Source of the DNA: a virus
Taxonomy: Duplodnaviria; Heunggongvirae; Uroviricota; Caudoviricetes
IMG/VR virus record: IMGVR_UViG_3300029305_011675
Direction: 5' to 3' (one strand)
DNA: 64,000 nt
Shown here: positions 6,136 to 26,954 of the stretch, piece by piece
Numbering within the stretch: position 1 is the first letter of the stretch
Layout: each line of letters starts with the position of its first letter
Translations under genes and position numbers: made by a program
Notes under the pieces: generated by a model
The model's database searches: none
Told to the model about the DNA's origin: nothing
Seen by the model: the letters and a program-made list of their open reading frames with translations, nothing else

Positions 6136-6164
6136 AATGTAAATAATCATTTAATCTAAAACAA

Positions 6165-9384: not shown

Positions 9385-9386
9385 AT

Positions 9387-10661: not shown

Positions 10662-12812
10662 ATGGATAATATAATGCTAACCGTTGGTAATGTTATTATA
10701 GATGAGCATAGTGGCAAACAATATCGAGTTGTTGCAGTTGTAAACAATGATATTACTTTATGCGAGATGAATACTACGAAGTTTTTACTCTCGTTAATGA
10801 ATAAACAAACCTTGTTCGCACTTGTGGCAACAGGTGAATTAATAATCAAAGTCGAACCACCCATCGTTTTCAACAAGGATGACTTACCAGAGGGTTTTCA
10901 GAAAAAATTCACAATAAGACAACAGATAATGAATGAGGTCCTCAAGGAATATGGACCATCTTATATTGAACTAAACGGTAAAAAACGAGGCAGGACAGTC
11001 AAGGATATAATGAGTAAATATAACTTGGCAAGATGTTCTTTCTGGAGAATATGTACTCAATATTTTCAAAGTGGTCTTCAAGATTATTCGTTAGTTGATT
11101 CGAGATATTTTGGTGCAAATACTGGCAAGACATATAATTATGAGACCAAAACTGGTCGCCCACCAGAATACTCTATGGCATCGGGAATTATTATCACCGA
11201 TGAAATTATCAAGCATTTTGAAGAAGCATTGAAAGATTATAAGTCTGGAAGACACAAATCCATCAAGGATGCTTTTGACAAAATGAATTTGTTGCATTTT
11301 ACAAAAACAGAAATAATTAACGGTCAACCCAGTATTGTTTTATTGCCCATATCAGAAAGACCAACACTCGACCAATTTAGATACTATTGCAACAAACATC
11401 TTACAAACCAAGAAAAAGACTTAATAAAAACATCTGCACTCGAACAAAAGAATAACAAAAGACTTCTTGTAAGCGATTCACTCAATGGTGTAAATGGACC
11501 TGGTGATTTGGTAGAAATCGATGCTTGCGAAGCAGATATATCGTTGGTTTCTGTTATTGACTCATCAAAAACTATCGGCAGACCGATAGTGTACTTTATG
11601 GTTGATGTATACTCTCGCATTATCTTGGCAGTGTCTGTTGCTTTTGATAATAACTCTATGCTTGGTTTATCAAACTTATTTCTAAACCTTGCAGATGATA
11701 AACAGAAGTATTGTGAGAGATACGGAATTAGTTATGAAAACAAAGATATTTGGCCATCAAACATTATTCCCAATCGTGTTCGTGTTGACAAAGGTGCTGA
11801 ATTTAGAAGCAAAGAGTTTGAGAGAATCTGCAATGAACTTGGTATTGAAAGAAATATCGTATTGCCAGGGTGTGGTTCTCTCAAAGGTATTGTAGAGCAG
11901 TCATTTAGACAATTACATCTCAAACAAAATCATCATCTTGAAAATCATGGTCTCATTACCCAAAGACACGATTCCAAACATCATCAAGAGGCGATGTTGA
12001 ATATTGAAGAATATACTAAAATGGTTATTGGTTTTGTTCTAACTCACAACCAACAATGCTTAACAAATTTCCCACTCACAAAAGATATGATTTTGAAGAA
12101 GGTTCAACCCATTCCTGCTTTGTTGTGGAAATATGGCATAAACAACGGTTTCACACCGAGACCAATCCCTTCGCTGCAACAATATCTATTCAATCTTATG
12201 ACACCTATCAATGCCAAAGTAAGCAGAAAAGGTATCAGTCATAAGGAATTATATTATCTAAACACAGAAGATAAAAAACTTGCTCGTGAGATGTTTGATG
12301 CTGGCAACAAAAGAAAAGATTTTGAAGCAAGAATGGATATGAGAGATGTTGGTTCGATTTATTATATCAGAGATAATAAGTTAATGGTCGCCAGACTTAA
12401 CCCGCTAATTCAAGGGAATGCGGAATATGCTGGTATGACGATGAAGGAATACGAAGATTTCCGCAAGGGTAAAAAAGAACTTCTCGCAGCAGGCAAGGTT
12501 AATAACGAAGAATTGTCTGCATTCAATTATGCGATGAACAATGCTATTGTTGAAGAAGCGACAAAACCAATGTTACCTTCTGCAAAAGATATGAGACCTG
12601 CTCGTGAGATTGAAAAGCAGGCAAAATCTAAATCTAATAAAATCAGCAAAAGATTAGAACAACCTAAACTCGAAGCACCAAAAACGGAAGATGTTTTGGT
12701 AGAAGAGTTTATTGAAAAAATAACCGAATGTCCTCCTGCAGAGGAAGTCCCAGTAAAGAAAAATAAGTTAAACACATATAGCAATTGGGACGAAGCATTG
12801 GAAGATTGGTAA
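10662..12812 (+). CDS. tnsB: Tn7 TnsB-like / Mu-type DDE transposase
   Basis: About 717 aa. The core matches TnsB/TniA integrases, e.g. IVYFMVDVYSRIILAVSVAFDNNS and RVRVDKGAEFRS. RBS taggag. Confidence 0.75.
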   Translation: MDNIMLTVGNVIIDEHSGKQYRVVAVVNNDITLCEMNTTKFLLSLMNKQTLFALVATGELIIKVEPPIVFNKDDLPEGFQKKFTIRQQIMNEVLKEYGPSYIELNGKKRGRTVKDIMSKYNLARCSFWRICTQYFQSGLQDYSLVDSRYFGANTGKTYNYETKTGRPPEYSMASGIIITDEIIKHFEEALKDYKSGRHKSIKDAFDKMNLLHFTKTEIINGQPSIVLLPISERPTLDQFRYYCNKHLTNQEKDLIKTSALEQKNNKRLLVSDSLNGVNGPGDLVEIDACEADISLVSVIDSSKTIGRPIVYFMVDVYSRIILAVSVAFDNNSMLGLSNLFLNLADDKQKYCERYGISYENKDIWPSNIIPNRVRVDKGAEFRSKEFERICNELGIERNIVLPGCGSLKGIVEQSFRQLHLKQNHHLENHGLITQRHDSKHHQEAMLNIEEYTKMVIGFVLTHNQQCLTNFPLTKDMILKKVQPIPALLWKYGINNGFTPRPIPSLQQYLFNLMTPINAKVSRKGISHKELYYLNTEDKKLAREMFDAGNKRKDFEARMDMRDVGSIYYIRDNKLMVARLNPLIQGNAEYAGMTMKEYEDFRKGKKELLAAGKVNNEELSAFNYAMNNAIVEEATKPMLPSAKDMRPAREIEKQAKSKSNKISKRLEQPKLEAPKTEDVLVEEFIEKITECPPAEEVPVKKNKLNTYSNWDEALEDW

Positions 12813-12825
12813 GGAGGTATTCGAT

Positions 12826-14433
12826 ATGGATATAAAATATAATTATTACGAATGTGAAAAATTCGAGACACAATATGAAGATTATGATTTTGAAGAAAAC
12901 AAAATCGTAAATGCCAGATATGTTAAGGCACTTGTTGAATGTGATATCGGTAACCCATACATAGAGGCATTGCCACATCCGAGACACGAAGATGATGTAA
13001 GAGATGCATACACAAAACATCTTTTAACATACGACTACGATAAGGTCAAAAATATGACCAAATTAGAAAAGATGTTGCAAGTTAGCACTTTAAGGCAGAT
13101 AAGATTTCCTCTTACATTCCACAAGAATTTGGAATTTTCATTCTATAATGCTTTAATTACATCTTATAGGTCAAGGAAAATCAAACCCATAAACGATAAA
13201 CCAATTGAATATATTTCAAACGATATAGAGACAGAAACCAACTGTGTTTTATATGGTAATTCTGCCGATTCTACAAATGCAGGATTCTCTCTCATAGGTT
13301 ATTCTGGTTGTGGCAAAAGTTCCGCAATCCAAACATTGCTTTCGCATTATCCACAAACCATTATACATCGTGTAGATGAGTTTACACAATATGTCCAGAT
13401 TGTTTATTTGGTTGTAAACTGTGTACCCAATAGTAATTTCTCTGCATTATATGAAGGCATTGGCGATGCTGTTGATAAGGCGCTCGGCAATACTCAACCT
13501 GTTTATGCAAAAGAGATTGCAAAAACAACCACACTTGGCAGAAAAATGGAGAAGGTTCGTGAGTTAATAGAAAGATTTGGTATCGGAATGATTATCTTTG
13601 ATGAGATACAACTCATAGATTTTGATAGAACAAAAGAAAGTTCTTTTGAATCTTTAATGACTTTATCTAACAGAACAAAAGTCGCTATCGCTGTTGTAGG
13701 TACAGAAGATGCCAGAGACAAAATGTTTAAGGAATTAAGAACCACAAGAAGAATTGGAACAGTAATCAACGGTAATATGTATTGTGAGAACAAAATGTTT
13801 TTTACATTCCTTGTCACTCAACTATTTAACTATCAATGGTTTGATGAACCAATTGATGTAACAGAGGAACTTGTAGATGCCCTCTACGATGTCACCAAAG
13901 GCATTGTGGACCAACTTATAGGAATATACTCCTGTATGCATTACGACTATTTAGAGCGAAAGAAACGCCCCGTAATCGATGCGAAATATGTCTATGATAT
14001 AGCACAAAGATATTACCCAGGAATTCAGAATGTTCTTGCGGATTTGGAATCAATTGAAGCGGCAAGAAAACTTATGGGCATCAGACAAGATGCAGAAGTT
14101 AGAGTCGCTTCTATCATTGATAATGCAAAGCAGGAAAAAGAAGCAGAAGACTTGTTACAAAAACAAAATAAAGCAGTCGATAAAATGCTAATGTTGAAAA
14201 ATATTGTAGCAAATATCACTGCCCTATATGATGAATATTCTCTTTCTCAAATTGAAAAGGCATTTAATTTAGTTATAAAACAGACCAAAGACAATCCTAA
14301 ATCCGAAAGAGAAATGAGTCGTTTGGTTCTTGATAAACTTACTCACAGAAGAAATACCAAATCTGCAGATAAAAAGAAAAAGTCGAGTATCCCAGAAATG
14401 GATACAACGACTATGAGAGATTTTATTGGATAA
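12826..14433 (+). CDS. tnsC: TnsC-like AAA+ ATPase (transposition regulator)
   Basis: Walker A is GYSGCGKSS and Walker B is GMIIFDEIQ. It sits immediately downstream of tnsB, with RBS aaggagg. Confidence 0.75.
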   Translation: MDIKYNYYECEKFETQYEDYDFEENKIVNARYVKALVECDIGNPYIEALPHPRHEDDVRDAYTKHLLTYDYDKVKNMTKLEKMLQVSTLRQIRFPLTFHKNLEFSFYNALITSYRSRKIKPINDKPIEYISNDIETETNCVLYGNSADSTNAGFSLIGYSGCGKSSAIQTLLSHYPQTIIHRVDEFTQYVQIVYLVVNCVPNSNFSALYEGIGDAVDKALGNTQPVYAKEIAKTTTLGRKMEKVRELIERFGIGMIIFDEIQLIDFDRTKESSFESLMTLSNRTKVAIAVVGTEDARDKMFKELRTTRRIGTVINGNMYCENKMFFTFLVTQLFNYQWFDEPIDVTEELVDALYDVTKGIVDQLIGIYSCMHYDYLERKKRPVIDAKYVYDIAQRYYPGIQNVLADLESIEAARKLMGIRQDAEVRVASIIDNAKQEKEAEDLLQKQNKAVDKMLMLKNIVANITALYDEYSLSQIEKAFNLVIKQTKDNPKSEREMSRLVLDKLTHRRNTKSADKKKKSSIPEMDTTTMRDFIG

Positions 14434-14448
14434 TAGGAGGAATAAAGT

Positions 14449-16575
14449 ATGAATAAATTCATTCCTATGATTGTTGCCCCTTACCCAGACGAATTCTTAT
14501 ATTCTTGGGTAATGAGATTAGCAAACGCCAATAAACTTTCCGTTCCTCTGTTTTTTGAAACCTATTTCGGTAAAGAATACTTTAGCAAGTTTTTACTTCC
14601 CATAGATATTAGAAAAGGTTTTGGTTCATTCTATAATTTTCTTAATTGTACAACCCCTGTTTCAGAATTATATTTAAGTTTATCTACTCTACAATTTGAA
14701 TTATTGTCTTATCCACCCAAGATGCAGACAAAGTTCATAAATCCTATTTTCAGAAAAGAAAATAACATATATACCATAAAAGAATATTTAATGACAGATT
14801 TCCGTATGTGTAAAGAATGTATGAAGGAAGATAAGGAATTATTCGGAGAAACTTACATTCATCGTTCTCATCAGTTAAATGGTGTTTGTGTTTGTCATAA
14901 ACATCACACCCCATTATTTATTCAAAAAAGGAATTCGAAATACATTTACAAAGATGAAACTTTGGAACAAATGGAGTTAGCAGACACTTTTGAAAAAGAG
15001 TGCGAATATGCTGATTATACCCATTTTCTGTTAGAAAACAATTTTCAATCTAATTCTAATGATTTAATGAAAATCATAATCGATAAATTAGGGATATTAG
15101 AATCAAATAAAAAGGAATTGGTCATAAAAATAAACGAAATACTCAAAAATGGCAAAACTTATTCCAAAGAAAGTTTGTGGTCTAAAAACGATTGTAACTT
15201 TCCAATAAAAGATTTTATTAAAGTATTGATGTATGCATACCCAAATCCAAAAGACATATTAGTAAAAGCGAAGAAATTTTCTCTAATCATTGAACAAAAA
15301 TGTGATAAGTGCGGTAAGACTTTTTACACAACAGAACAAGCACTTAAAGATGGATGGGGTTGTACATTTTGTGATGATAAACTTAAAGAAATAGATTTGA
15401 TAAAGAGATTGATTAAAATTGGTGGAAACGGAGAATATGTTTTCAAAGGTTTCCTACCAACTAAAACTAAAAACAGCATACGTCTATTCCATAAACCTTG
15501 TGGCGAAGAACACCTTACCAGTTTAAATAACTTCGTTTTTAATCACAAAAGATGCAAGTGTGGTATAAAAATGCAAAGAAAAGAAGCAGAAAAAGAGATG
15601 AAAAAACACCCACAATTCAAGTTGGTTGAATTTAACGGTGCTACATTTCCTGCAAAGTTCCGTCACAATGATTGTGGTAGAGAGTTTGAATATAAATCAT
15701 TCAGATGGTTTTTAAAATGGCCTAAATGTCCTCATTGTCAAGGATTTACAAAAGAAAATCTTGAACAAGAAATAAGGGATGTTGTTGGGGATGAATATAC
15801 GGTTTGTGATATTGGTTCTATTCGTAAAGATAAAGTCACCATTAGGCACAACATTTGTGGATGCGCACACGAATATGTGCCATACAATTTTCTTATTGGT
15901 GCCAGATGTCCCAAATGCTACAATCAAGTGTCGTTAAGGGAATTGAAAATAATGTTAAAAGAATATTCTGATGATAGATATGAAATTGTAGGAAAAAGAA
16001 AAGAAAAATGTATTATATATGACAAGGAAACAGACGAAACCATTGAGTTGACAAATAGACATATATTGCAAGAGATTAAAAGACCAACACCATCTTCCTT
16101 ATTACCTGTAAAAAATCGCAAATCCATTCAAAGTCCTTTGTCAACTTGGGATTTTTGGTATCAACTTTGTATTGAATACAAAAACGAGTTTGGACATCTG
16201 TGTCCAGTGATGAATGAAACATACAAAGGATATAATCTATATAGTTGGTTGATTGTAACCAGACAATATTACAGAAAAGGACAACTTTCACAAGAAAAGA
16301 TACAAGCACTTAAAGATATAGATTTTGTATTCGATACTGCATTTTATAAGTGGGAACAAAGGTTTAATGAATATAAAGTATTTGTTAATGAAACAGGAAA
16401 TTATTTTCCTTCAGTCAAAGAAATACACAATGGAAATAAAGTGGGTCAGTGGTTTTTAAGGCAACGAAAAGCGAAAAACAGAGGTAGTTTAAAACCAAAG
16501 TATGAAAAAATATTATTGGAATATTATTCAGATTTTTTTAAAAAACATCCAAGATACAAAAACAATACCATTTAA
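14449..16575 (+). CDS. tniQ: TniQ/TnsD-like target-selector protein
   Basis: The N-terminus MIVAPYPDEFLYSWVMRLANAN is the TniQ signature. Multiple CxxC/CxxH zinc-finger clusters. 708 aa, closer in size to TnsD. Confidence 0.7.
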   Translation: MNKFIPMIVAPYPDEFLYSWVMRLANANKLSVPLFFETYFGKEYFSKFLLPIDIRKGFGSFYNFLNCTTPVSELYLSLSTLQFELLSYPPKMQTKFINPIFRKENNIYTIKEYLMTDFRMCKECMKEDKELFGETYIHRSHQLNGVCVCHKHHTPLFIQKRNSKYIYKDETLEQMELADTFEKECEYADYTHFLLENNFQSNSNDLMKIIIDKLGILESNKKELVIKINEILKNGKTYSKESLWSKNDCNFPIKDFIKVLMYAYPNPKDILVKAKKFSLIIEQKCDKCGKTFYTTEQALKDGWGCTFCDDKLKEIDLIKRLIKIGGNGEYVFKGFLPTKTKNSIRLFHKPCGEEHLTSLNNFVFNHKRCKCGIKMQRKEAEKEMKKHPQFKLVEFNGATFPAKFRHNDCGREFEYKSFRWFLKWPKCPHCQGFTKENLEQEIRDVVGDEYTVCDIGSIRKDKVTIRHNICGCAHEYVPYNFLIGARCPKCYNQVSLRELKIMLKEYSDDRYEIVGKRKEKCIIYDKETDETIELTNRHILQEIKRPTPSSLLPVKNRKSIQSPLSTWDFWYQLCIEYKNEFGHLCPVMNETYKGYNLYSWLIVTRQYYRKGQLSQEKIQALKDIDFVFDTAFYKWEQRFNEYKVFVNETGNYFPSVKEIHNGNKVGQWFLRQRKAKNRGSLKPKYEKILLEYYSDFFKKHPRYKNNTI

Positions 16576-16658
16576 TTAAGAGTTTGGCGATAAAAAGAAA
16601 CTCGTTATTTTGATAAAAAAACAGGGGTGCCTTTTTTAATTGCTTTAATTCAATTCTA

Positions 16659-16687
16659 TTGACAGAATGGCATATTTATGTTATAAT
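16659..16687 (+). promoter_or_regulatory. Sigma-A promoter TTGACA-17-TGTTATAAT for the cargo ORFs
   Basis: ttgacagaatggcatatttatgttataat, followed by a ~120-nt leader that contains a 15-bp long-range helix (16716-16731 pairing with 16778-16792). Confidence 0.6.
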
Positions 16688-16809
16688 AAAATTAGAATTC
16701 CGCAAGTTTTAACTACTTATTCTTTTGAAGATTAACCTGAAGTAGAGGTTATAACTGGATTTCCACACACACGAATCTCTTCAAAAAATAAGAAACGAGG
16801 TTAAAAAAT

Positions 16810-17247
16810 ATGTTATTTGAATATGATTATTGCGGAATTATGTTTAGAAATCCTTTTGCATATGATAATAAACAAAATTATCATTGCGCGACAATGCTGT
16901 TAAATGCATTGTCATCGTATATTACCACATATCGTCCAAAGGAAGAACACACAAGCGAAAGTATTTACAAATTGCTTGTCGCCAATTCAGAACAAAGACA
17001 CATTGGTGATTCTCCTTTTGCTATCAATGGAAAAGGTAGTCTTTTAGATGCAATTTTTGAAGAACTCCGAATGAAAGTTCCCTGTTGTATCGAATTAGAA
17101 TATTATAAAATATTTAAAGCATTTCCATTGAAACAACAACTTTCAGTTATTGCCACCTTGATGGCAGAAAATTTTGGTTTAAGAGAAAAGGCAATCGAGA
17201 ATTTTCTTAAAAAATCAAAAGACCCGTTTGTAACAAACAAAGAATAA
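16810..17247 (+). CDS. Hypothetical protein (transposon cargo)
   Basis: 145 aa. RBS gaaacgagg. No recognisable motif. Confidence 0.5.
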   Translation: MLFEYDYCGIMFRNPFAYDNKQNYHCATMLLNALSSYITTYRPKEEHTSESIYKLLVANSEQRHIGDSPFAINGKGSLLDAIFEELRMKVPCCIELEYYKIFKAFPLKQQLSVIATLMAENFGLREKAIENFLKKSKDPFVTNKE

Positions 17248-17308
17248 AATTAATGGCATACGATTGGTTGTGTGTGCAATCGTATGCTATTTTTTAGGAG
17301 AATTAGTT

Positions 17309-18241
17309 ATGAGAGAAAATTTAAAACAACTTATAGGCGAAGAAATTAGTGGTGTAGCAAAGTGTGTCAGAAATGGACATCGTTGCCTATTGAGAGATAT
17401 CGTAGTAGACGACTCTTGTTCTTTTGACCCAGACTTATATTTAGCAATAGAACAACACTTGTGGACAGATTCTAATGTTATTGAGAAAAACAATATAAAA
17501 CGATATTCTTATTTTCGTTTCGCTGGCTCTGTATATGAGTATAAAAGAGAAAACGACACAACAGATTATTCTATCGAATTAAAAGAAGTTGAACCGATTG
17601 ATACTTTTAAGTATTTAAAAAGCAGAATTCAGCAATGCTATTGTAGACATGTGTGTTTATTTTTTGAACACTGCTATTATAACTGCTGTGCACCACAATC
17701 AGAAAAAGATAATTTTGTTATTCCTGTATTAGAAAAGATGTTTTTAGAAGAAGCAGTCAACGATTTTGCAGAAGAATATGAATTTTCACCAAAGGATTTT
17801 CTAAAAGAAATCAGGAACAAAACTCTATTTAAAATTAGTGATGCACATATTTATCTTGGTATGAATAAGGCAGATTTTATCAAAAGATATAAGTCCAACA
17901 TTATTGAGGGCAATGAGTTTGGATATAAAATGAAACCTATTGAAGTAGATAAAATCTTCTTAACTCCAGTTATTCATTTTATGAAAAACGGGATGTGCGA
18001 TGCAATTGCATTTGAGACTAATCAAGATAATTTAAATACTGCAATTCAATATATAAATAAAAAGTATAACACAAATGTTACACTTTTTAATCACAAAGAA
18101 TTGATTGACTTATTCAAAGCAGAGATGGAATTTGGAGATATTATTTTTGGTTATTCAAAAGCACAAGAAAATCATCCTGCTTCCATTGTTATGAGTTTGT
18201 CAACACCAATATCGACATATTTCTCGGTTGGCTTACAATAA
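17309..18241 (+). CDS. Hypothetical protein (transposon cargo)
   Basis: The internal ATG has RBS taggag. 310 aa, Cys-containing, no recognisable motif. Confidence 0.5.
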   Translation: MRENLKQLIGEEISGVAKCVRNGHRCLLRDIVVDDSCSFDPDLYLAIEQHLWTDSNVIEKNNIKRYSYFRFAGSVYEYKRENDTTDYSIELKEVEPIDTFKYLKSRIQQCYCRHVCLFFEHCYYNCCAPQSEKDNFVIPVLEKMFLEEAVNDFAEEYEFSPKDFLKEIRNKTLFKISDAHIYLGMNKADFIKRYKSNIIEGNEFGYKMKPIEVDKIFLTPVIHFMKNGMCDAIAFETNQDNLNTAIQYINKKYNTNVTLFNHKELIDLFKAEMEFGDIIFGYSKAQENHPASIVMSLSTPISTYFSVGLQ

Positions 18242-18303
18242 AATATTTTTATATAAACGGAAACTTATAAAAATAAAAAACAATTTATAACACTATTAAG
18301 TTT

Positions 18304-18439
18304 TGTTTCAAAACAAGTTTCACAACATTGTAACTATCAAAGACATTATATTGCTTTGTTTTATAATAAGTTTCTAATAAATCACGAAGAAAACTATGAA
18401 AAAGCATAGTTCTGTTTCAAAATAAGTTTATAATCAACA
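18304..18439 (-). repeat. Tn7L-like end: three spaced inverted copies of the ~20-bp repeat plus the terminal 8 bp
   Basis: tgtttcaaaacaagtttcac (18304-18323), tgttttataataagtttct (18358-18376) and tgtttcaaaataagtttat (18413-18431). Each is the reverse complement of gaaactt...gaaaca. The element ends ...atcaaca at 18439. Confidence 0.75.
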
Positions 18440-18513: not shown

Positions 18514-18672
18514 TATTGGCAATATTTTTTTGAAATAAAAAAACATATTTTATATAATCAAATTGTCCATTATTAAGAATATATTAAGGAGGGATTATGT
18601 TTTATCTTCTGCATATTGTAATGGACAAAAATAATCATTTAACTATAAAAATTTTAGGAGGAAACTAAAAAA

Positions 18673-19236
18673 ATGAAGAAAGTTGTATCTTGTATCTTGG
18701 TTGTTGTATGTATTATGTTCCTGTTTACTGCTTGTGACGCTCCCAGCGGTAGCACTGTAGACAAGACAAATACCAAGGAAATCGCAAACAAATTGCAGAC
18801 CAATCAACCTACCCCTACCGACATTGACTATTCCCTTGAGCGCTACAACCTCATTCGTCGTGCTTACTGGGTAAACGGTCAGAGAGATAAGGCAGATGCT
18901 GTTCCTTGTGCAGTAGAAAAGCCTTTGGGTTATATTGTGCTTTTCACTGAAAGTGGTGCAGTTGTCGGCAAGTTTGTTGTAGATGGTAAGGTAAGTAGTC
19001 TCAACAGTTATTTGACACCCGATAGTGAATATTTCGAAATTTCTTCTGGCAGTACCTATAAGAACGAATGGCTCACCGATGTCGATGGTTCTTATGGAGA
19101 AAATGACAGTGGTATTTTCTTCTTTGACACTATGGGCAATTACATTGAATGGACTGGCACTTATCTGTATACCGATATTCCTATGACTATCGAGAATCCT
19201 GTAATCAATTTTGATGTAACTTATGAGGAGGACTAA
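18673..19236 (+). CDS. Lipoprotein, hypothetical
   Basis: The signal peptide ends in the lipobox LFTAC. RBS aggagg. Confidence 0.6.
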   Translation: MKKVVSCILVVVCIMFLFTACDAPSGSTVDKTNTKEIANKLQTNQPTPTDIDYSLERYNLIRRAYWVNGQRDKADAVPCAVEKPLGYIVLFTESGAVVGKFVVDGKVSSLNSYLTPDSEYFEISSGSTYKNEWLTDVDGSYGENDSGIFFFDTMGNYIEWTGTYLYTDIPMTIENPVINFDVTYEED

Positions 19237-19239
19237 AAA

Positions 19240-19629
19240 ATGAATAAGACTTTAACTGTGATTATTTCCGTCGTTGTTGCTCTCGTCCTGTTTTGTGCCA
19301 TTTTCTTTGGCGCTACTCCCGCAGGCAGAGAAGTGTGGAATGGTTGGTTCAATAAGGTTCAGAAGGCCGATGATAATACCAACTATGAAACCATCAAGAA
19401 GGTAGAAGATACCTGCCGTGCTATGATTGCAAATTATGAAGCAGACAAACTGACCTACGAACAGTATAAGGACAGTGATGATGAAGAAAAGCAGTCTTGG
19501 GCGGAACAGGCAAAAATGCGTGCAAATAAAACCGCATCTTCTTACAACAATTACATCTTGCAGAACAGTCACGTATGGAAAGACAATGTCCCTGCTGACA
19601 TTTTATCCAAACTTCCGTACATCGAATAA
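19240..19629 (+). CDS. Membrane-anchored hypothetical protein
   Basis: N-terminal TM helix. RBS gaggagg. 3 nt after the previous stop. Confidence 0.55.
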   Translation: MNKTLTVIISVVVALVLFCAIFFGATPAGREVWNGWFNKVQKADDNTNYETIKKVEDTCRAMIANYEADKLTYEQYKDSDDEEKQSWAEQAKMRANKTASSYNNYILQNSHVWKDNVPADILSKLPYIE

Positions 19630-19643
19630 AGTGACAATTTGGT

Positions 19644-19675
19644 GAGGGCATCTTTGATGCCCTCATCTTTTTATG
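19644..19675 (+). terminator. Rho-independent terminator
   Basis: gagggcatctttgatgccctc + atcttttta. Confidence 0.75.
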
Positions 19676-19731
19676 CGACCAAAGCAATAAAAAAGTAAGC
19701 GCATTATGTGCTTACTTTTTTGCTTTGTATG

Positions 19732-19760
19732 TTGACATTGGGTATGTTTTATGGTATAAT
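19732..19760 (+). promoter_or_regulatory. Sigma-A promoter ttgacattgggtatgttttatggtataat
   Basis: Perfect -35, 17-bp spacer and an extended -10. A terminator hairpin sits at 19694-19726. Confidence 0.7.
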
Positions 19761-19791
19761 AAGATAAAGAACTAATAGGAGGCATATATAA

Positions 19792-20478
19792 ATGGATATT
19801 GTTATTTCTATATATAAACAATGGTCTCAAATGATTTTGAGCGGAGAAAAACCCATTGAATTTAGAACAAAATTACCCAATGATTTTAAGAGTGGCGACA
19901 AGATTTATATCTACGAAACCGCAAGATATGGTGGTGCTCGTGCTATTGTAGGCGAATGTGTTGTGGATTACATCATTCCTGTATTAAGTTCTATTAAGAA
20001 TAATAAATGGCCTATTTATGGTGCATATCCTTTCATTGACTATTATTTCGAACACATCAAGGGCGATAAGGATATCGCAGAACATTACCGTAAACTCAAG
20101 AAGGAATTCGACACATACAAAAATTATCGCTATGGTTTTATTCTTAATTATGCTTTCTGCGAAGAAGAACTCGAAAGTCTTCGCACAACTGGAAGTTTAA
20201 TTGATACTTTTAAGATTTTTGATTACGACCTCGTAAAAAAGATTATCGACAAAAACGACATTGGTAATGCAAGAATTGAGGAATGCGATAAGTGGTTGTC
20301 CAAAATCGGTTATTACAACGAATTTGACGAAACTTACTACCAATATGGTATCGTCTTGAAAGATGTTATCAAATATGATACCCCCACTCCAACCTGTGAA
20401 TTTTTAGATAGGAACGGAAATCCAATTCAAAGAGCACCTCAATCTTGGATGTACACAAAAGGAAGAAAGGAGAACTAA
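19792..20478 (+). CDS. ASCH (PUA-like) domain protein with an unknown C-terminal domain
   Basis: The N-terminus MDIVISIYKQWSQMILSGEKPIEFRT resembles the ASCH-domain N-terminal strand region. 228 aa. Confidence 0.5.
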   Translation: MDIVISIYKQWSQMILSGEKPIEFRTKLPNDFKSGDKIYIYETARYGGARAIVGECVVDYIIPVLSSIKNNKWPIYGAYPFIDYYFEHIKGDKDIAEHYRKLKKEFDTYKNYRYGFILNYAFCEEELESLRTTGSLIDTFKIFDYDLVKKIIDKNDIGNARIEECDKWLSKIGYYNEFDETYYQYGIVLKDVIKYDTPTPTCEFLDRNGNPIQRAPQSWMYTKGRKEN

Positions 20479-20479
20479 T

Positions 20480-21370
20480 ATGGGTTGCGATATTCATACA
20501 ATTGTTGAAATAAAGAAAAATGGAAAGTGGGAATATGTCCCTGACTTACCCGTTGTTTTTGACAGCAGAAGTTACGGTGTTTTTTCCATCTTAAACAGAA
20601 ATGTCCGTAACAGTTACGGACGAGATGGTTTTGAGCAAAAAGGTCTACCCCACGATGTTAGTGGTCGCCGTTTTAGATTTACTTCTCACCGAGAAGAACT
20701 CGAAAGAGCATATAACCACAAGGAGACTTTTGTCTGTTATATTGGCGGAGAAGACAAAAAATATGTTCAAGTTTATGACGAAAGTCTGAAAACCGAAATT
20801 GATTTCGAATTTTACGAAGAACTTAAGAGCGGAATGACACACGAACAGTCGCTTCGCTATTATTCTCCCACTCAAACCGCTTACCCTCAAAAGTATTTTG
20901 TACAGGATGCACAAAAAGTTGGTGGGCAATTTATGGAAATTCCCTATCGTTTCCTATATTCTGACATCAAGGAATTCAATAAAGCATATTATAATTATCC
21001 TTGGTATGATGAAGAGCAAGACTTTGGATACTATGATGTCGATTTTGACAGCGACCTCCACAGTCATTCTTATCTTTCTCTGGCAGAACTCAAAACCAAG
21101 GTAATGACTAAATCTTCCGAAAAAGAATTTTTGGTTAATAAAGAGTTTTTGGTATGTCTTAAAGAAGAATTAGGTGGCGATTTTCCCGAAACAATGATTA
21201 TTGGTGACGAAGTGGATGGCAATAACAAAGTTTCCTTTGTAGTTGACCCTTATGAAACCTGTTGCCAAGAAAATTACAATGAAGGTGTTGAAGAACTATG
21301 CAAGATTAAAGAAAAGTACAATATAGTAAACGACGAAGATATTCGTATCGTTTTTGCTTTCGATTCTTAA
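20480..21370 (+). CDS. Hypothetical protein, 'MGCDIH...IRIVFAFD' family (paralog A)
   Basis: Shares with 22736..23683 the N-terminus MGCDIH.I.EI.KNGKW, FDSR.YG.FS.L, KGLP.D.S, SYLSL.EL and the C-terminus DIRIVFAFD. Starts 2 nt after the ASCH gene. Confidence 0.6.
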   Translation: MGCDIHTIVEIKKNGKWEYVPDLPVVFDSRSYGVFSILNRNVRNSYGRDGFEQKGLPHDVSGRRFRFTSHREELERAYNHKETFVCYIGGEDKKYVQVYDESLKTEIDFEFYEELKSGMTHEQSLRYYSPTQTAYPQKYFVQDAQKVGGQFMEIPYRFLYSDIKEFNKAYYNYPWYDEEQDFGYYDVDFDSDLHSHSYLSLAELKTKVMTKSSEKEFLVNKEFLVCLKEELGGDFPETMIIGDEVDGNNKVSFVVDPYETCCQENYNEGVEELCKIKEKYNIVNDEDIRIVFAFDS

Positions 21371-21387
21371 CAAAAAGGAGTGATTTT

Positions 21388-21957
21388 GTGATTTTATGGA
21401 CTGTACAACCAGTTGAAGTTTATGAGAAAATTTTAGAAACAGGTAAATATGTTTGTGATGGTAGGCGAACCGATAAATTTTTTCGAGACAGATATAAATG
21501 GTTGTGCGAAGAAATGAAAATCAAAATCGGCAAACCTCCTAAAAATGTAACATACCCTGTTTGGGCATGGCATACAAGGGACTTCAAAAGAAAGAAACCA
21601 GACCTTCGCTCTTCATCCGAACACGGACGCCGTGGCGACAAAATGGTTTGTATGGAAATTGAAGTACCAGATAAAGATGTTCTCCTGACAGACTTCGATG
21701 CTTGGCACTTTGTTCTCAATAAATGGTATTTAAACACCAATTGTTGGGATGAAGAAACCTTTGACAAAGACCATGAATGGTTAGATAGTCTTTCGAAAGA
21801 AGAAAGAGAACATGTCATTGAAGAATCTTGGCAAGGAATTTATAATATTGAACCCAAAGAAACGGACTGGTGTGCTCGTGGGAAATGGGTACAAGCAACC
21901 TTTTGGGAACTCAAAAAAGAATATATCAAAAAAGTACAGTTTTTTACTGTTAGATAA
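21388..21957 (+). CDS. DUF3841-like protein (tentative); GTG start
   Basis: MILWTVQPVEVYEKILETGKY resembles the DUF3841 N-terminus. RBS aaaggag. Confidence 0.4.
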   Translation: MILWTVQPVEVYEKILETGKYVCDGRRTDKFFRDRYKWLCEEMKIKIGKPPKNVTYPVWAWHTRDFKRKKPDLRSSSEHGRRGDKMVCMEIEVPDKDVLLTDFDAWHFVLNKWYLNTNCWDEETFDKDHEWLDSLSKEEREHVIEESWQGIYNIEPKETDWCARGKWVQATFWELKKEYIKKVQFFTVR

Positions 21958-21960
21958 CAC

Positions 21961-21994
21961 AAAAAGCAACTTCTTTTCGAAGTTGCTTTTTTAG
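21961..21994 (+). terminator. Rho-independent terminator
   Basis: aaaaagcaacttcttttcgaagttgctttttt. Confidence 0.8.
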
Positions 21995-22026
21995 TACCCA
22001 AATCAGATACTTTTCATAAAAACAGG

Positions 22027-22055
22027 TTGACATTGAGAATACTTTGTGGTATAAT
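22027..22055 (+). promoter_or_regulatory. Sigma-A promoter ttgacattgagaatactttgtggtataat
   Basis: Consensus -35 and an extended -10. Confidence 0.7.
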
Positions 22056-22089
22056 AATATTAAAGAAAATACACAAAGGAGAATGAATT

Positions 22090-22722
22090 ATGAAGTTATA
22101 TATCTTTTCTTCTGTAAACGGTAAGATTTCTCGTGAGGAAAAGGAAGTTATTGAAAAGAACAAGATTTTTGTTGAGAAAGTTGGCATTTCTGAACGACAT
22201 TATGCAAAGAGTATGCTTGATGTTCCAGAGACCACTATTTCTTCTGTTTCTATGATTTCTTTAAATGGTCGTATTGACCACTTTGCGCAGGAAGTCTTAA
22301 AGGCGCAAAAGAATGAAATCGACAAACTTGAGAGAAAGCTCGCAGAAAAGAAAAATACACTAATTCGCTTTAAGATGAATTATGCTGGTGTATTGGAGTG
22401 TCGTGTTGAAAACGGCATTTATAATGCAGTTTCTACTCTTGAATTTAAGTACAATGGCGATATGGTCTCTGCCACCAAAGAATCTGTTGAAAATAAAACT
22501 CCCGTTCAGATTCCCCTACATCACATTGTGGACGGTGAGTTATTCTTTGAGATGATGGAAGAACACCCTTTCCTTTCCGTCTATAATATTTTTGTAAACG
22601 GAAATGCTACCAACCTTGCATTAGAAGGTTACGAAAACGGTAAGGAAAACGAATGTGTAATTTCTATGGAAAAGTTAAAGAAAATGCACGAAAAAACCAA
22701 GTTAGAAATTGATTGCGAATAA
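22090..22722 (+). CDS. Hypothetical protein
   Basis: 210 aa. RBS aaaggag. Confidence 0.55.
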   Translation: MKLYIFSSVNGKISREEKEVIEKNKIFVEKVGISERHYAKSMLDVPETTISSVSMISLNGRIDHFAQEVLKAQKNEIDKLERKLAEKKNTLIRFKMNYAGVLECRVENGIYNAVSTLEFKYNGDMVSATKESVENKTPVQIPLHHIVDGELFFEMMEEHPFLSVYNIFVNGNATNLALEGYENGKENECVISMEKLKKMHEKTKLEIDCE

Positions 22723-22735
22723 GGAGGAAATTTAA

Positions 22736-23683
22736 ATGGGTTGCGATATTCATATTATCACAGAAATCAGAAAAAATGGCAAATGGCAATGGGTAAAAGA
22801 AATCCCAGAATCATTTGACAGCAGAAATTATGGTCTTTTTTCAGTTCTTGCAGGTGTAAGAAACTCTTTCAACATCAAGGGCTTTGAAGCGAAGGGTCTC
22901 CCCGAAGACATCAGTGCAATGAAATTTGACTTCGAAACTTACACAAACAGAGCAAAAGAAAGATTTTATGACGACAATGATGGTCAAATCCTCTTTGTTG
23001 ACAAAGACGGTAATTACCACGAACCTTCTGCTGTTGAGAAAACTCATCTCACAAAAGAGGAATATGAGACACTCAATGTAAAACAAAGAACAGAAGTTGA
23101 TACATTTGATAAGCAGTATAATTCTCTCGGTTATACTCAAAGCGGAAATCAGACACCCGATTATTATGTTCGAGATGCTTATGCAAATGGTGGTCGCTTT
23201 GAACGGATTCCTCACTATAAGTATTACCCCAATATTGAAGCATTTCTAAAAGATTACTACGAAGACGACTGGGATGAAGAAATGCAAGATTATGGTCGCT
23301 GGAGAGTAAACTTCGAATACTGCGGTCCTCACGGCGATTACCACACCCCAAGTTTCCTTTCTCTCCACGAACTCATCACTGCTGATTTGAAGGACTATTA
23401 TTCTGACAAATACAAGATGGATGTTGCTTTTTATGAAGCATTCAAGAGAATGGGCGGAACTCTTCCCGAAGGTATGACCGTTCAGGAATTCACTCCTGAA
23501 ACTTTGCAGGATGTTTTTCAGTCTGCACTTTGCCCAGTTATTTTGGTAGTCTGGGAAAAGGACGAAGAGGCAAAGAAAGAAACTGCACTTTACTGTGGTA
23601 TCGAAGAAATGAAAGAAATCGCAAAGAAGTACGGCATCGACGACCCTAACGACATTCGTATTGTATTTGCATTCGATAATTAA
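22736..23683 (+). CDS. Hypothetical protein, 'MGCDIH...IRIVFAFD' family (paralog B)
   Basis: Same terminal and internal motifs as 20480..21370. RBS aaggagg. Confidence 0.6.
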   Translation: MGCDIHIITEIRKNGKWQWVKEIPESFDSRNYGLFSVLAGVRNSFNIKGFEAKGLPEDISAMKFDFETYTNRAKERFYDDNDGQILFVDKDGNYHEPSAVEKTHLTKEEYETLNVKQRTEVDTFDKQYNSLGYTQSGNQTPDYYVRDAYANGGRFERIPHYKYYPNIEAFLKDYYEDDWDEEMQDYGRWRVNFEYCGPHGDYHTPSFLSLHELITADLKDYYSDKYKMDVAFYEAFKRMGGTLPEGMTVQEFTPETLQDVFQSALCPVILVVWEKDEEAKKETALYCGIEEMKEIAKKYGIDDPNDIRIVFAFDN

Positions 23684-23708
23684 ATGTGTTAATACTATGT
23701 CTTATTAC

Positions 23709-23749
23709 AGAACCACTTTCTTTGAAAGTGGTTCTTTTGTATGTTTTTT
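23709..23749 (+). terminator. Rho-independent terminator
   Basis: gaaccactttctttgaaagtggttc + ttttgtatgtttttt. Confidence 0.8.
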
Positions 23750-23760
23750 GTATTTTCTGG

Positions 23761-23789
23761 TTGACATTCGCAGTGTTTTATGGTATAAT
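23761..23789 (+). promoter_or_regulatory. Sigma-A promoter ttgacattcgcagtgttttatggtataat
   Basis: Consensus -35 and an extended -10. Confidence 0.7.
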
Positions 23790-23816
23790 TATATTAAAGA
23801 AAAAGGAGGAATTGAT

Positions 23817-26195
23817 ATGAAAAAAGCACATTTTGAAGCACTTTTGGAGGTAAATAATTTACCCACCAAACTTATCACTAAAATGATTGGAAAGAATATT
23901 TTCTTCCCGATTTTTAAGACTTCGCAAAAAACAATTATTGTCCCTAATGGCAAAAAAGAGAAGAAAACCGATTGCATTTGTTCCAACTGCAGTCATAGGT
24001 TCTCTATCTCTGGCGAAGTATCTACTCTCGTCTGCCCAGAATGTGGAAGCAATGATACCTATTACTCTCCGAGAGCAATTAGCGACCTAAAGGAAGACTT
24101 TACTTTTTCAAAAGATGTAGATATTTATATTTGCACCGAAGAAGATAGCAAGAGTTTCTTCCATGCAGACTTCCAGTATGGAAATTCCGACAGTCGTTAT
24201 CGTAATTCCCATGCTACTTTCGTATTAGACAAAGCAGTTGTCGAAGATGAAACCTATTATATTCTTCACGAATACAAAGGATTTTTCAATTTTGACGAAA
24301 CAACTGGTCAGAGAAATCTTATGTTCCTTGATGAAGGAAATATGATTATCTTTAGCAAGTCGGAAATTGCAAATGTTCGTTCTTACAGACGGTCAACCGC
24401 ATCCTTTTATAATTCCTATACAACAACCTATGACCGTAAGAAAATTATTTTGGCAGAGGATGCTTTATTCAATGAGTTTTTCGCAATGACTACTGGTTAT
24501 AATGCGAACAACATCAAAGAACTGTTAAGCAAAACCAAAACCAATGGTTTTTACAGTATCGACCTTGCAAAATTAGATAATGTTCGTTATATGATTAAAG
24601 AGAATAGACCTGTCAGCAAGTCTGCAAATAAGCGAGAGATGTTAGTAAAGTCCATTTACGAAACTCTCCCGAAACCCACTCCTTTCACTGTCAAAAACGA
24701 CCATATTTATTACACCATTACGGAGATTGATGAAATCGCAAACTCACAGACCATTAAATATATTTGTCCCGACTGTGGCGGTATTAATTCTGTTGTAATT
24801 AACAGATACCAAAGTGCTGCCGAAAGAGAGACTATGGAGTTCTCTTGCGACCATTGCGGTGTAGTCATTCCTTTCAATAGGATGAAGGATTTGACAACCA
24901 CAAACAATATCAAACATTCGGTCAATGTTGTTTGCGACTATAATAACGGTATTATTATTTTTGATGCCCTTTACCGTTGTTTGGCAGAAAACGGAAGAAA
25001 TTTATTTATCCCGATTACCGAAAATCATTATCCCAAAACTATTATTGTAATTGATAAAGAGTTTGACAAGGATAACATTATGGCAAACACCACAATTCTT
25101 CGTGGCAATGGTTATGGTTTATCTTATTCTATGGCAAAAACTTTCAAAATCAACTACAATTCATCTATCCCTTATATTCACAATATGGCAACCAATTTCA
25201 ATATGCAATGGTCTGCCATTGATAGAATTAACGAGCAAAGTAGATATCGTGATTCTGCAAGTACAGACACAGTTGCTGCATTTGCACTGCTTTACAGAAA
25301 ATATCCCGTGCTCGAAAAATTCATAAAAGAAGGACAAACATCTATCCTTTCTAACATTTTGGAAAAATTTGATTGGATTACACTTTCTCCAGAAGTAAAG
25401 TTTGACCTTGAAAAGAATGATGTTGCATCTGCTTTGAGAATTTCTAAAAGTTGTGTAAAAATTCTTAACTCGCTTTCTCCCGATAGACGAGTTGATGCAC
25501 ACAACTCTCTGCAATTACTCTATAACCTTGATAACAACATCACTGCTGAAAATTATCAGTATATTACAAACAACTACATTTCTGTATATAAAGTAGCAGA
25601 TATTTGTAGAAAATTTGGTCTTTCCATTCATCAAATTTGTGAATATATTGAACGAGTTCGTCTTACACAATGTGTAAATCCCCAAACAGCAACTTCTGAA
25701 TGGGCAGACTATTTGGATGCCTGTGAAGTTATTGGTTCTGACCTAAATGACAGACGAGTGAAATACCCCGCTGCTCTTCGTACCGAACACGATAAGGTTG
25801 TTTACAAAAAGAAAATTATTGAAGACGAACAGAGCGAAGAAAAATTCCAAAAAACTACCGAAGAATACGGCAAAAAGTATTCCCACAAAGGTCAGAAGTA
25901 TATGATTACCTATCCGAAAACACTGAAAGATTTGTTTGAGGAAGGTAGATTGCTCAACCACTGTGTTGGTTCTTATGGAGATGCCATCAAGCGAGGGGAT
26001 AGTGTCATTCTCTTTGTAAGAAAAGTTGACGAACCTGACACTCCTTACTTCACTCTTGAAGTAAAACCCGCTTACAATGCAATCACCCAGTTTTATGGAC
26101 ATTCTGACCATCCCCCTCACAGAGTAAGGGATAAAGAACTTATTGAATATATCAGTAAGTGGGCAAAAAATAACGATATTCGTTATTCCAAGTAA
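23817..26195 (+). CDS. PcfJ-like domain protein with zinc-ribbon motifs
   Basis: Internal ATG with RBS aaaggagg. CxxC...CxxC pairs (CSNCSH..CPECGS; CPDCGG..CDHCG). The C-terminus LKDLFEEGRLLNHCVGSYGDAIKRGDSVILFVR resembles the PcfJ domain. Confidence 0.5.
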   Translation: MKKAHFEALLEVNNLPTKLITKMIGKNIFFPIFKTSQKTIIVPNGKKEKKTDCICSNCSHRFSISGEVSTLVCPECGSNDTYYSPRAISDLKEDFTFSKDVDIYICTEEDSKSFFHADFQYGNSDSRYRNSHATFVLDKAVVEDETYYILHEYKGFFNFDETTGQRNLMFLDEGNMIIFSKSEIANVRSYRRSTASFYNSYTTTYDRKKIILAEDALFNEFFAMTTGYNANNIKELLSKTKTNGFYSIDLAKLDNVRYMIKENRPVSKSANKREMLVKSIYETLPKPTPFTVKNDHIYYTITEIDEIANSQTIKYICPDCGGINSVVINRYQSAAERETMEFSCDHCGVVIPFNRMKDLTTTNNIKHSVNVVCDYNNGIIIFDALYRCLAENGRNLFIPITENHYPKTIIVIDKEFDKDNIMANTTILRGNGYGLSYSMAKTFKINYNSSIPYIHNMATNFNMQWSAIDRINEQSRYRDSASTDTVAAFALLYRKYPVLEKFIKEGQTSILSNILEKFDWITLSPEVKFDLEKNDVASALRISKSCVKILNSLSPDRRVDAHNSLQLLYNLDNNITAENYQYITNNYISVYKVADICRKFGLSIHQICEYIERVRLTQCVNPQTATSEWADYLDACEVIGSDLNDRRVKYPAALRTEHDKVVYKKKIIEDEQSEEKFQKTTEEYGKKYSHKGQKYMITYPKTLKDLFEEGRLLNHCVGSYGDAIKRGDSVILFVRKVDEPDTPYFTLEVKPAYNAITQFYGHSDHPPHRVRDKELIEYISKWAKNNDIRYSK

Positions 26196-26252
26196 AATCA
26201 AATAGGGGCGAGAAATCGCCCCTATACAAAATCTTGTAAGAAGGTGAGAAAT

Positions 26253-26954
26253 ATGACAGAGAAAATACTATATATTGTAGAAGTATTAAGAGACTTCAAT
26301 ATTTGGTCTGTAATCGTAAGACTGCTTTTGGCAACAATTTTGAGTGGTATCATTGGTGTTGAACGAGAAAAAGTTGGTCGTGCAGCAGGTTTAAGAACCC
26401 ACATACTTGTTTGTCTTGGTGCAACAATTGCCTCGATGGTTGGTCTACATATCAATGCGACCTATGGAACTGGCGATGTAACGAGAATTGCCGCACAGGT
26501 TGTATCTGGTATCGGTTTCCTTGGGGCAGGAACAATATTGGTTAAAAACAAATCTGTCGTAACAGGCCTCACCACAGCCGCTTGTGTCTGGACAACTGGT
26601 GCTGTTGGTATTGCGGTTGGTTATGGTTTCTATGAAGCAGCAATTGTCGGTGCATTATTAGTATTTTTCATCACTGGAAAACTTGGCAGTGTAGATAAAA
26701 AGTTGTATAGAAACACAACCCGTGTTAGTGTTTTCGTGGAATTCGAAGATGCAAAATTTCTAAATGCGAGTTTGAAGAATATTGAAGCAAAAGATATCAC
26801 CATAAACCAGATTAGTCTTACCAAAGCAAAGACAGAAAATCCCAAAGCAGTTGGTGCAGAAATGTTCCTAAAGTTGGGCAAAAAAGCAGATGTCGATAAA
26901 ATTATGGATGAAATTAATGACTTACCAAATGTTAATTTCGCAATTATCATTTAA
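26253..26954 (+). CDS. mgtC: MgtC/SapB family membrane protein
   Basis: GVEREKVGRAAGLRTHILVCLGA is the MgtC signature. Confidence 0.8.
   Translation: MTEKILYIVEVLRDFNIWSVIVRLLLATILSGIIGVEREKVGRAAGLRTHILVCLGATIASMVGLHINATYGTGDVTRIAAQVVSGIGFLGAGTILVKNKSVVTGLTTAACVWTTGAVGIAVGYGFYEAAIVGALLVFFITGKLGSVDKKLYRNTTRVSVFVEFEDAKFLNASLKNIEAKDITINQISLTKAKTENPKAVGAEMFLKLGKKADVDKIMDEINDLPNVNFAIII

Follow-up and report, generated by a model that had tools for sequence, protein, structure and literature searches.

The islands that form at the Tn7 attachment site attTn7 and the cargo carried by Tn7, which has been surveyed, are among the described systems closest to the present locus. The locus is a block of three separately promoted units on the plus strand, spanning 19.7-26.2 kb and lying close downstream of yqeY, in the virus record IMGVR_UViG_3300029305_011675 (64,000 nucleotides (nt); this whole stretch is called the window below). 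As in Tn7 attachment-site and defence islands, insertions at the locus enter at one fixed place, the 3' end of a gene that is conserved; the cargo includes restriction-modification (R-M) genes, and the occupants differ from strain to strain. Unlike them, the block itself lies outside the transposon, is more stable than the insertions beside it, and contains no recognised defence system.

We favour, at a probability of about 0.5, the reading that the block is a conflict-type island with uncharacterised content, made up of conflict genes (for defence, exclusion or anti-defence) that were domesticated from phages or conjugative elements. Its families are typical of phages, of the flanks of prophage integration modules or of conjugative plasmids, with PHROG matches for orf228, the family here named MGCDIH, and PcfJ. 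Unit 1 is a tightly coupled operon of an ASCH-like protein, MGCDIH-A and a DUF3841 protein; unit 2 is a portable two-gene module of orf210 and MGCDIH-B; unit 3 is a PcfJ-domain protein with weak zinc-ribbon motifs and probable read-through to mgtC. An action of these proteins on nucleic acids or NAD-derived nucleotides is suggested by the family distribution, the predicted fold of DUF3841, the ASCH-like domain, the exchange of orf210, and the replacement of one gene by an AcrIII-1-type gene in a relative.

The linkage of gyrB and yqeY in relatives, together with identical copies of window proteins on contigs of up to 678,911 bp, indicates that the block is chromosomal; the host is an uncultured low-GC Firmicute, a gut bacterium. 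GC content is about 34% over the window and does not set the block apart from its surroundings. A jumbo phage or plasmid had been considered on account of a NAMPT gene, methylases and many small open reading frames (ORFs), and is rejected in view of the same linkage and contigs. Nucleotide searches with the block against phage and plasmid collections gave no match, and an Rfam scan of 5-34 kb found no family within the block, the only matches being sub-threshold, terminator-like ones near 18.4-18.5 kb.

The first gene of unit 1, orf228, aligns over its first ~90 amino acids (aa) with ASCH proteins, namely chains of the PDB 5GUQ/5GUS group (E 2.4e-4) and the PADLOC model PDC-M11B (1.5e-10), and the same segment matches phrog_3136 (2.3e-15). 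It differs from ASCH proteins and PDC-M11 in lacking a Pfam ASCH match (no Pfam match of any kind at E<=0.01), in its unmatched C-terminal half of 130 aa, and in its partner genes. An ASCH assignment of the N-terminus is therefore weakly suggested at the level of sequence.

The third gene of unit 1 belongs clearly to DUF3841 (PF12952; Pfam 5.2e-30, 104.9 bits against a cut-off of 27, profile positions 1-177 of 178). Its predicted structure resembles ADP-ribosyltransferases (ARTs), with TreTu (7.5), TreX (7.3), heat-labile enterotoxin A (7.2), Tpt1/KptA (6.9) and DarT (5.5) among the matches, and pertussis S1, Scabin, Tne2, pierisin and RES as further matches; the model also has the ART split beta-sheet core. 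The predicted structure thus supports a place for DUF3841 in the ART superfamily at the level of fold. Residues conserved in the family are W4, Q7, Y36, W59, W61, E90, D102 and Q169, with no obvious His or Arg on strand 1. In 23 viral loci DUF3841 mostly adjoins serine recombinases and restriction-type genes, and none of these loci has an MGCDIH or orf228/ASCH neighbour. A literature search on DUF3841 and PF12952 found no paper in the library covered.

The resemblance of the DUF3841 model to the toxins TreTu, TreX, DarT, RES and Tne2 raises the idea that unit 1 is a DarTG-type toxin-antidote or abortive infection system, in which DUF3841 would be the toxin and MGCDIH-A and/or the ASCH-like protein would restrain it or reverse its effect. 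The tight translational coupling of the three genes would fit, as would the occurrence of DUF3841 as a "moron" near integrases and with restriction genes. However, DUF3841 usually occurs without MGCDIH or ASCH neighbours, MGCDIH occurs mostly without DUF3841, and the canonical catalytic triad is not evident in DUF3841, so that we regard this explanation as improbable. About 20 kb away from the DUF3841 gene, the window encodes a 624-aa NAMPT-like phosphoribosyltransferase (39141-41015) and a NADAR-isochorismatase fusion protein (45355-46353); both belong to NAD/ADP-ribose metabolism and may bear on the ART-fold protein.

The MGCDIH proteins form a very large superfamily. A word-indexed search recovered 96 clusters, while an exhaustive profile search at E<=1e-3 recovered 5,656 representatives (50% identity), most of which are short forms of 120-260 aa consisting of the N-terminal ~65 aa and the C-terminal ~115 aa; only 71 of the 5,656 score <=1e-30, the full-length range. 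The closest annotated families are PHROG 10141 and 17909, phage proteins of unassigned function, which match the N-terminal ~60 aa of both window proteins. The window proteins differ from them as the rare long form of ~300 aa with a central insertion of ~115 aa. MGCDIH-A and MGCDIH-B share 36% identity (E 5e-49), and the list of homologs separates them into two subfamilies, which marks the duplication as old; the duplicated gene family described from the sequence alone is thus a true pair of paralogs, but not a recent expansion.

No Pfam match was found for 69 sampled members of the superfamily, nor any Pfam or NCBIfam match for the window MGCDIH proteins and orf210. MGCDIH also lacks a match among PDB sequences; its confidently predicted model has no PDB fold match. 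A fold search of BFVD returned only weak matches, to uncharacterised phage proteins. In the 69-sequence alignment M1, G2, I5, Y32, E203, R289, F294 and D295 are invariant, and D4, H6, R30, R43 and H194 are conserved in at least 90%. These residues may form a metal-binding active site that draws on both termini.

Relatives of MGCDIH were found in at least 115 viral contigs, where they lie within replication modules. At the 70 loci of these whose neighbours were compiled, the adjoining genes include those for DNA polymerase A, helicases, AAA_24, Prim-Pol/primase, RecT, exonuclease and Metallophos proteins, with no fixed partner. A tblastn search with MGCDIH-A against the phage collection gave no match at 1e-3, though relatives exist in PHROG and IMG/VR. 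On bacterial contigs (contigs and lineages are cited by L number), MGCDIH homologs stand beside a Pnkp-like AAA_33+Metallophos gene (L007) or AAA_14/Metallophos genes (L005). The L007 gene pair (8709-10945), in which the AAA_33+Metallophos gene overlaps the start of the MGCDIH homolog by one codon, lies in a region that resembles an integrative and conjugative element (ICE), with topoisomerase III and DUF6103, and is the tightest partnership seen for MGCDIH apart from that with orf210.

These neighbours bear on another explanation, namely that unit 1 serves RNA repair or modification, in which ASCH would bind RNA, DUF3841 would be a Tpt1/KptA-like 2'-phosphotransferase, and MGCDIH would process or seal ends. 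Besides the L007 pair, with its overlapping start and stop, and the L005 genes, Metallophos neighbours occur in 3 of the 70 viral MGCDIH loci, RtcB, HAD_SAK_2 and AAA_33 each occur once near DUF3841, and the 5GUQ ASCH protein is a single-stranded-RNA ribonuclease. However, toxin ARTs equal or outscore Tpt1 as matches of DUF3841, the R-H-R-R tetrad of Tpt1 is not identifiable in it, MGCDIH does not have the invariant lysine of a classical ligase, and associations with repair genes are few. RNA repair is held to be improbable.

In unit 2, orf210 is a rare gene, with only 6 clusters among 5.8e9 proteins. Homologs of orf210 also adjoin an MGCDIH gene in L006, L024 and L027, three other contexts that are unrelated, and orf210 with MGCDIH is a portable two-gene module. 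Compared with the related strain L019, orf210 shows 69% aa identity and a synonymous divergence (dS) of 1.67, while that of its neighbours is 0.13-0.34; as its dS is about ten times that of the neighbours, the allele has been exchanged and is not evolving fast. The membrane protein orf221 (27066-27731, downstream of mgtC) has 64% identity to L019/L028 and a dS of 1.47, and by the same measure is a second exchanged allele beside the block and not a fast-evolving gene.

In the more distant relative L047, the MGCDIH-B slot after the orf210 homolog is filled by an STIV_B116-like gene (DUF1874). This family is that of the AcrIII-1/Crn2 cA4 ring nuclease and also includes YddF of ICEBs1. The replacement hints, circumstantially, that the MGCDIH-B slot holds counter-defence enzymes of mobile elements, although AcrIII-1/Crn2 proteins have no relation to MGCDIH in sequence or fold and the correspondence is one of position. 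It is further conceivable, though rather unlikely, that MGCDIH is an unrecognised enzyme fold carried widely by phages in replication and early modules, that with the ASCH-like and DUF3841 proteins it makes up a new NAD+-linked system of nucleic-acid modification or repair, and that orf210-MGCDIH is a second new two-gene conflict module whose enzyme slot is interchangeable with the AcrIII-1-type ring nuclease. On this view, such an interchange would point to MGCDIH as an enzyme that breaks down a signalling nucleotide of immunity or undoes a modification of nucleic acids.

According to the conflict-gene reading, the block genes would be expressed constitutively from consensus promoters. In unit 1, the ASCH-like domain would bind a nucleic-acid substrate, the ART-fold DUF3841 protein would transfer or handle an ADP-ribose or 2'-phosphate-type group, and MGCDIH-A may act as a metal-dependent enzyme, a role suggested by E203 and D295, which are invariant, and by D4, H6 and H194, which are nearly so. 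In unit 2, orf210 with its exchanged alleles would set the specificity or immunity of MGCDIH-B.

The PcfJ-domain protein of unit 3 is a clear member of its family over the C-terminal ~300 aa (PF14284; Pfam 4.2e-31, 108.2 bits against a cut-off of 25, aa 629-766), which it shares with PcfJ of Enterococcus pheromone plasmids and with PcfJ-like proteins of large Firmicute phages (phrog_8470). This C-terminal part occurs in 412 phage records, mainly large Staphylococcus, Bacillus, Enterococcus and Listeria phages, and in 578 plasmids, 533 of them from Enterococcus and others from Clostridium botulinum. The window protein differs from these in being chromosomal, in its own N-terminal region of ~470 aa, and in its apparent coupling to mgtC. 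The N-terminal region is lineage-specific, and two segments of it (aa 55-81 and 307-355) match zinc-ribbon models weakly. Literature searches found no paper on PF14284 and no functional study on PcfJ.

Downstream of the PcfJ gene stands a hairpin without a U-tract (26202-26225), so unit 3 is only partly insulated. The start of mgtC follows 28 nt past this hairpin, no promoter lies between the two genes, and the first canonical terminator comes only after mgtC (26963-26987); for these reasons PcfJ and mgtC are probably co-transcribed. Their adjacency is kept in L019, L028 and L029; mgtC is 100% identical in L019, while in L029 the identities are 59% for PcfJ and 73% for MgtC. In the more distant L030 and L031, the surroundings of mgtC have no flanking gene in common with the window.

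The comparison with relatives covers a handful of lineages, four of which have data downstream of yqeY. Unit 1 is resident in all four (4/4). L019/L028 represent a related strain (yqeY 96.6% nt identity, block 87-95%), in which yqeY, a terminator and a promoter are followed directly by the block; the 13.6-kb stretch with the transposon and the orf187-orf129 cassette is absent, and an extra lipoprotein gene lies within unit 2. In L047 (YqeY 84% aa identity), the order is yqeY, a Tn7-like end, a helix-turn-helix (HTH) gene, Type I R-M genes, and the block, with identities of 71% for orf228, 70% for MGCDIH-A, 77% for DUF3841, 42% for the orf210 homolog and 50% for PcfJ, and with perfect promoters at all three unit starts. 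L072 (YqeY 93%) has unit 1 at 88-94% identity, with its own terminator, and neither units 2 and 3 nor mgtC were found within 5 kb of it. Units 2 and 3 are thus separable, and between relatives entire units, or individual slots in them, have been gained, lost or replaced. Against L019, the six block genes have ratios of nonsynonymous to synonymous divergence (dN/dS) of 0.04-0.13, compared with 0.065 for YqeY, and all of them are real genes under strong purifying selection.

These data bear on the main rival, in which the block consists of ordinary chromosomal genes of this lineage that serve the cell and take no part in conflict, and its cassette look is a habit of the genome. In favour of it, the block has the same context in all recovered relatives, its dN/dS lies near that of YqeY, its promoter recurs at yqeY and at many genes unrelated to it, the similarly arranged minus-strand run at 27.7-31 kb included, and PcfJ is apparently coupled to mgtC. 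On the other hand, the great majority of family members are carried by phages, plasmids or prophages, L072 lacks units 2 and 3, L047 has a different gene in one slot, orf210 has undergone allele exchange, and the site is an insertion hotspot. We consider this explanation doubtful.

Several points weigh against the reading of the block as domesticated conflict genes. No block protein matches a validated defence or anti-defence system: in PADLOC-DB v2 the only hit is the candidate PDC-M11B (orf228), with none for the other five. The stable synteny and strong purifying selection fit an ordinary lineage-specific cellular function equally well. No ASCH-MGCDIH-DUF3841 trio appeared outside this clade, so a functional coupling of the three is putative. 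DUF3841 shares its predicted fold with the ART superfamily (TreTu/TreX, heat-labile enterotoxin A, Tpt1/KptA and DarT), yet neither the ART triad (H-Y-E or R-S-E) is evident among its conserved residues nor does a sequence-level link to any ART appear. As the MGCDIH fold has no matches, "metal-dependent enzyme" is a putative label drawn from residue conservation. Finally, the promoters and terminators are predictions.

Table 1. Features of the block and its surroundings in the window (positions in nt; all on the plus strand).
Feature	Position	Strand	Description
Tn7-like transposon, outside the block	6045..18439	+	12.4 kb; TGT...ACA ends; target-site duplication GTAAT at 6040-6044 / 18440-18444
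orf187 (lipoprotein-like)-orf129 (membrane protein) cassette with promoter	18530..19629, unit to 19722	+	Window lineage only; absent from L019, L047 and L072
Two tandem intrinsic terminators	19641-19667 and 19688-19722	+	-20.9 and -19.5 kcal/mol, both with U-rich tail
Promoter 1, predicted	19732..19760	+	TTGACATT-N8-TTTATGGTATAAT; sigma-A, TRTG -16/extended -10; equivalent in L019 and L047 (9258)
orf228	19792..20478	+	ASCH-like N-terminal domain (~aa 1-90) and ~130 aa without any match; dN/dS 0.047
MGCDIH-A	20480..21370	+	296 aa; long form of the superfamily; start 1 nt past orf228 stop
DUF3841 protein	21388..21957	+	189 aa; GTG start; AAGGAG ribosome-binding site; predicted structure of ADP-ribosyltransferase fold
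Terminator 1, predicted	21961..21997	+	Hairpin 21961-21991, 13-bp stem, U6 tail, -16.1 kcal/mol, z -7.3
Promoter 2, predicted	22027..22055	+	TTGACATT-N8-TTTGTGGTATAAT; kept in L019 and L047 (11530)
orf210	22090..22722	+	Rare MGCDIH partner; allelic hypervariability
MGCDIH-B	22736..23683	+	315 aa; old paralog of MGCDIH-A; phrog_10141 4.1e-19
Terminator 2, predicted	23709..23750	+	Hairpin 23709-23735, 12-bp stem, U-rich tail, -16.2 kcal/mol
Promoter 3, predicted	23761..23789	+	TTGACATT-N8-TTTATGGTATAAT; identical in L019; in L047 at 12628
PcfJ-domain protein	23817..26195	+	792 aa; conserved PcfJ module ~aa 470-790; phrog_8470 7e-56; dN/dS 0.039
GC-rich hairpin between PcfJ and mgtC	26202..26225	+	-19.1 kcal/mol; tail ACAAAAUCUUG without U-tract; non-canonical as terminator
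mgtC	26253..26954	+	Pfam MgtC 6.4e-36

The sequence-only reading had described the three units as insulated cassettes, each starting with a near-perfect promoter and ending with a strong terminator. A consensus promoter does stand at each unit start, but its spacer had been given wrongly: the pattern as first written, TTGACATT-n9-TTTRTGGTATAAT, has 0 matches in the window, and the corrected pattern, TTGACATT-N8-TTTRTGGTATAAT, is exact at 19732, 22027 and 23761 (+), 4112 (-) and 62992 (+). Allowing up to three mismatches, 13 sites were found in the window against 0.02 expected by chance. All three block promoters have 12/12 of TTGACA-17-TATAAT and the TG extension (TRTG upstream of the -10), which is the Gram-positive sigma-A consensus with its "-16" element, and a strong Shine-Dalgarno sequence and start codon lie downstream of each. 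Strong terminators close units 1 and 2, but not unit 3, and the tandem terminators at 19641..19722 mark the end of the orf187-orf129 unit upstream and keep unit 1 insulated.

It had also been stated that the promoter pattern is the consensus of the whole organism and does not define the cassettes, which is borne out by the 13 window sites, yqeY and the minus-strand genes. Of the other sites then named, 4112 is exact, 59178 has one mismatch, and the one given as 29005 lies at 29017-29045 with two mismatches. The promoter-gene-terminator layout likewise recurs in yqeY, in many other genes and in the minus-strand genes at 27.7-31 kb; this style is genome-wide and so no marker of the block, and the insulated architecture does not distinguish the block from the rest of the genome. 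The architecture is genuine, yet commonplace in this genome.

On the minus strand at 27750-31000, small genes of unknown function (220, 135 and 139 aa) and a gene for a 250-aa GIY-YIG protein each have their own consensus promoter and terminator. The promoters of this run make up the repeat family D1, at 28451, 29004, 29695, 30852 and 33059. Between the promoter of the GIY-YIG gene and the next gene, a 22-nt repeat, AAAATACACATAATACACACAA, is present in three copies (30971-31110).

In gene content, DUF3841 and PcfJ (both by Pfam) and the MGCDIH paralogs agree with what had been named from the sequence, while ASCH and the zinc ribbon are weakly matched. The proposal that the block is accessory is only partly right. 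It agrees with the mobile-element families, the hypervariable site and the separable units, but not with the same yqeY-proximal context in every relative recovered, the dN/dS of 0.04-0.13 and the promoters kept in L047. Conservation of the context in relatives, which had been named as the sign of core genes, largely holds for unit 1 and partly for the whole block (L019/L028, L047, unit 1 in L072, PcfJ-mgtC in L029). The suggested co-occurrence of ASCH, MGCDIH and DUF3841 homologs did not appear outside the clade.

The 3' end of yqeY is an insertion hotspot and an attachment site of TnsA-less Tn7-like elements; we know of no description of this position as a Tn7 attachment site. In the window, the Tn7-like transposon sits at the yqeY stop codon, which the GTAAT duplication overlaps. 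Three GAAACTTATTCYGAAACA sites lie at 6054-6135, directly after yqeY, and three inverted copies at 18304-18430. The transposon encodes an HTH protein, a ResIII/mREase-type enzyme, an N6/N4 methyltransferase, TnsB-like, TniB and TniQ+HA proteins, orf145 and orf325, and no TnsA was found in the 6045-18439 element. An att-like copy of the yqeY 3' end, GTAATTGTTAAATGACAAT, begins at 18440, past the transposon end and ahead of orf187-orf129.

Since defence genes are frequent cargo of Tn7-like elements, and the block begins only 1.3 kb past the transposon end, the block might have been taken for cargo of the present element. This is refuted: the GTAAT duplication and the TGT/ACA ends bound the element at 6045-18439 while the block starts at 19732, and the element is missing from L019, L047 and L072, which nevertheless have the block or unit 1, the site in L019 being empty.

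A related possibility, compatible with the conflict-gene reading, is that the block is fossil cargo of an older element (Tn7-like, ICE or plasmid) at the yqeY attachment site, whose ends and mobility genes have decayed, the block having been pushed away from yqeY by later insertions. New elements enter precisely at the yqeY stop codon, which places them between yqeY and the block, and the att-like GTAATTGTTAAATGACAAT copy past the transposon end, the orphan Tn7-like end without transposase in L047, and genes like those of conjugative elements (PcfJ of pCF10-type plasmids; DUF1874, the family of ICEBs1 YddF) would all fit. However, no lineage shows end repeats, an integrase or a transposase beside the block, whose GC content is like that of its surroundings and which is vertically conserved down to a YqeY identity of 84%. 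A fossil origin is considered unlikely.

Other occupants of the hotspot were observed in the relatives. The HTH gene and its upstream region are 85% identical in nt between the window (6196-6703) and L047 (2555-3061), and are followed by ResIII/mREase and methyltransferase genes in the window versus Type I HsdMSR in L047; the HTH gene resembles a conserved regulator whose R-M payload can be exchanged. Right after yqeY in L047 (2413-2494), three direct repeats, ATTACAAATTRGTTTGAGA, have the 20/43-nt spacing seen at the window transposon end, and no transposase and no second end were found within 15 kb of them; they are the orphan end of a different Tn7-like element. In L073, a transposase-less mini Tn7-like element of ~3 kb (~4640-7640) occupies the yqeY site, with homologs of both window ends and, as cargo, a 274-aa gene and an LRR_5 protein gene. 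Directly downstream of yqeY in L072 (10494-12099) lies an IscB-type OMEGA element made up of a consensus promoter, a HEARO RNA (Rfam RF02033; 127 bits, threshold 83) and an RRXRR+HNH ORF of 418 aa; it is followed directly by two small ORFs (119 and 139 aa) and then by unit 1.

Upstream of yqeY, the window encodes two proteins with a type IV pilin-like N-terminal methylation motif, one of them with DUF6273, and an R2K-clade ATP-grasp protein (469-1776, 2168-2977 and 4521-5519). The gyrB gene is split in two ORFs in L072 (4064-6951), L073 (113-1937), L009 (11927-14826) and L047 (1-1878), with a GIY-YIG gene (L072, L009) or a LAGLIDADG gene (L073) between the halves, suggesting that gyrB bears a homing-endonuclease intron or insertion.

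DUF3841, a family widespread in Firmicutes and prophages, can now be placed in the ART superfamily at the level of the predicted fold, and this placement makes a concrete biochemical test possible. MGCDIH, as a very large phage-associated superfamily with neither a Pfam nor a solved-fold match, is well suited to structural and functional studies of phage "dark matter". The hotspot at the yqeY 3' end provides a natural series of filled and empty sites (R-M, Tn7-like, IscB/HEARO). Should the units turn out to act in defence or anti-defence, the catalogue of such genes would gain new families.

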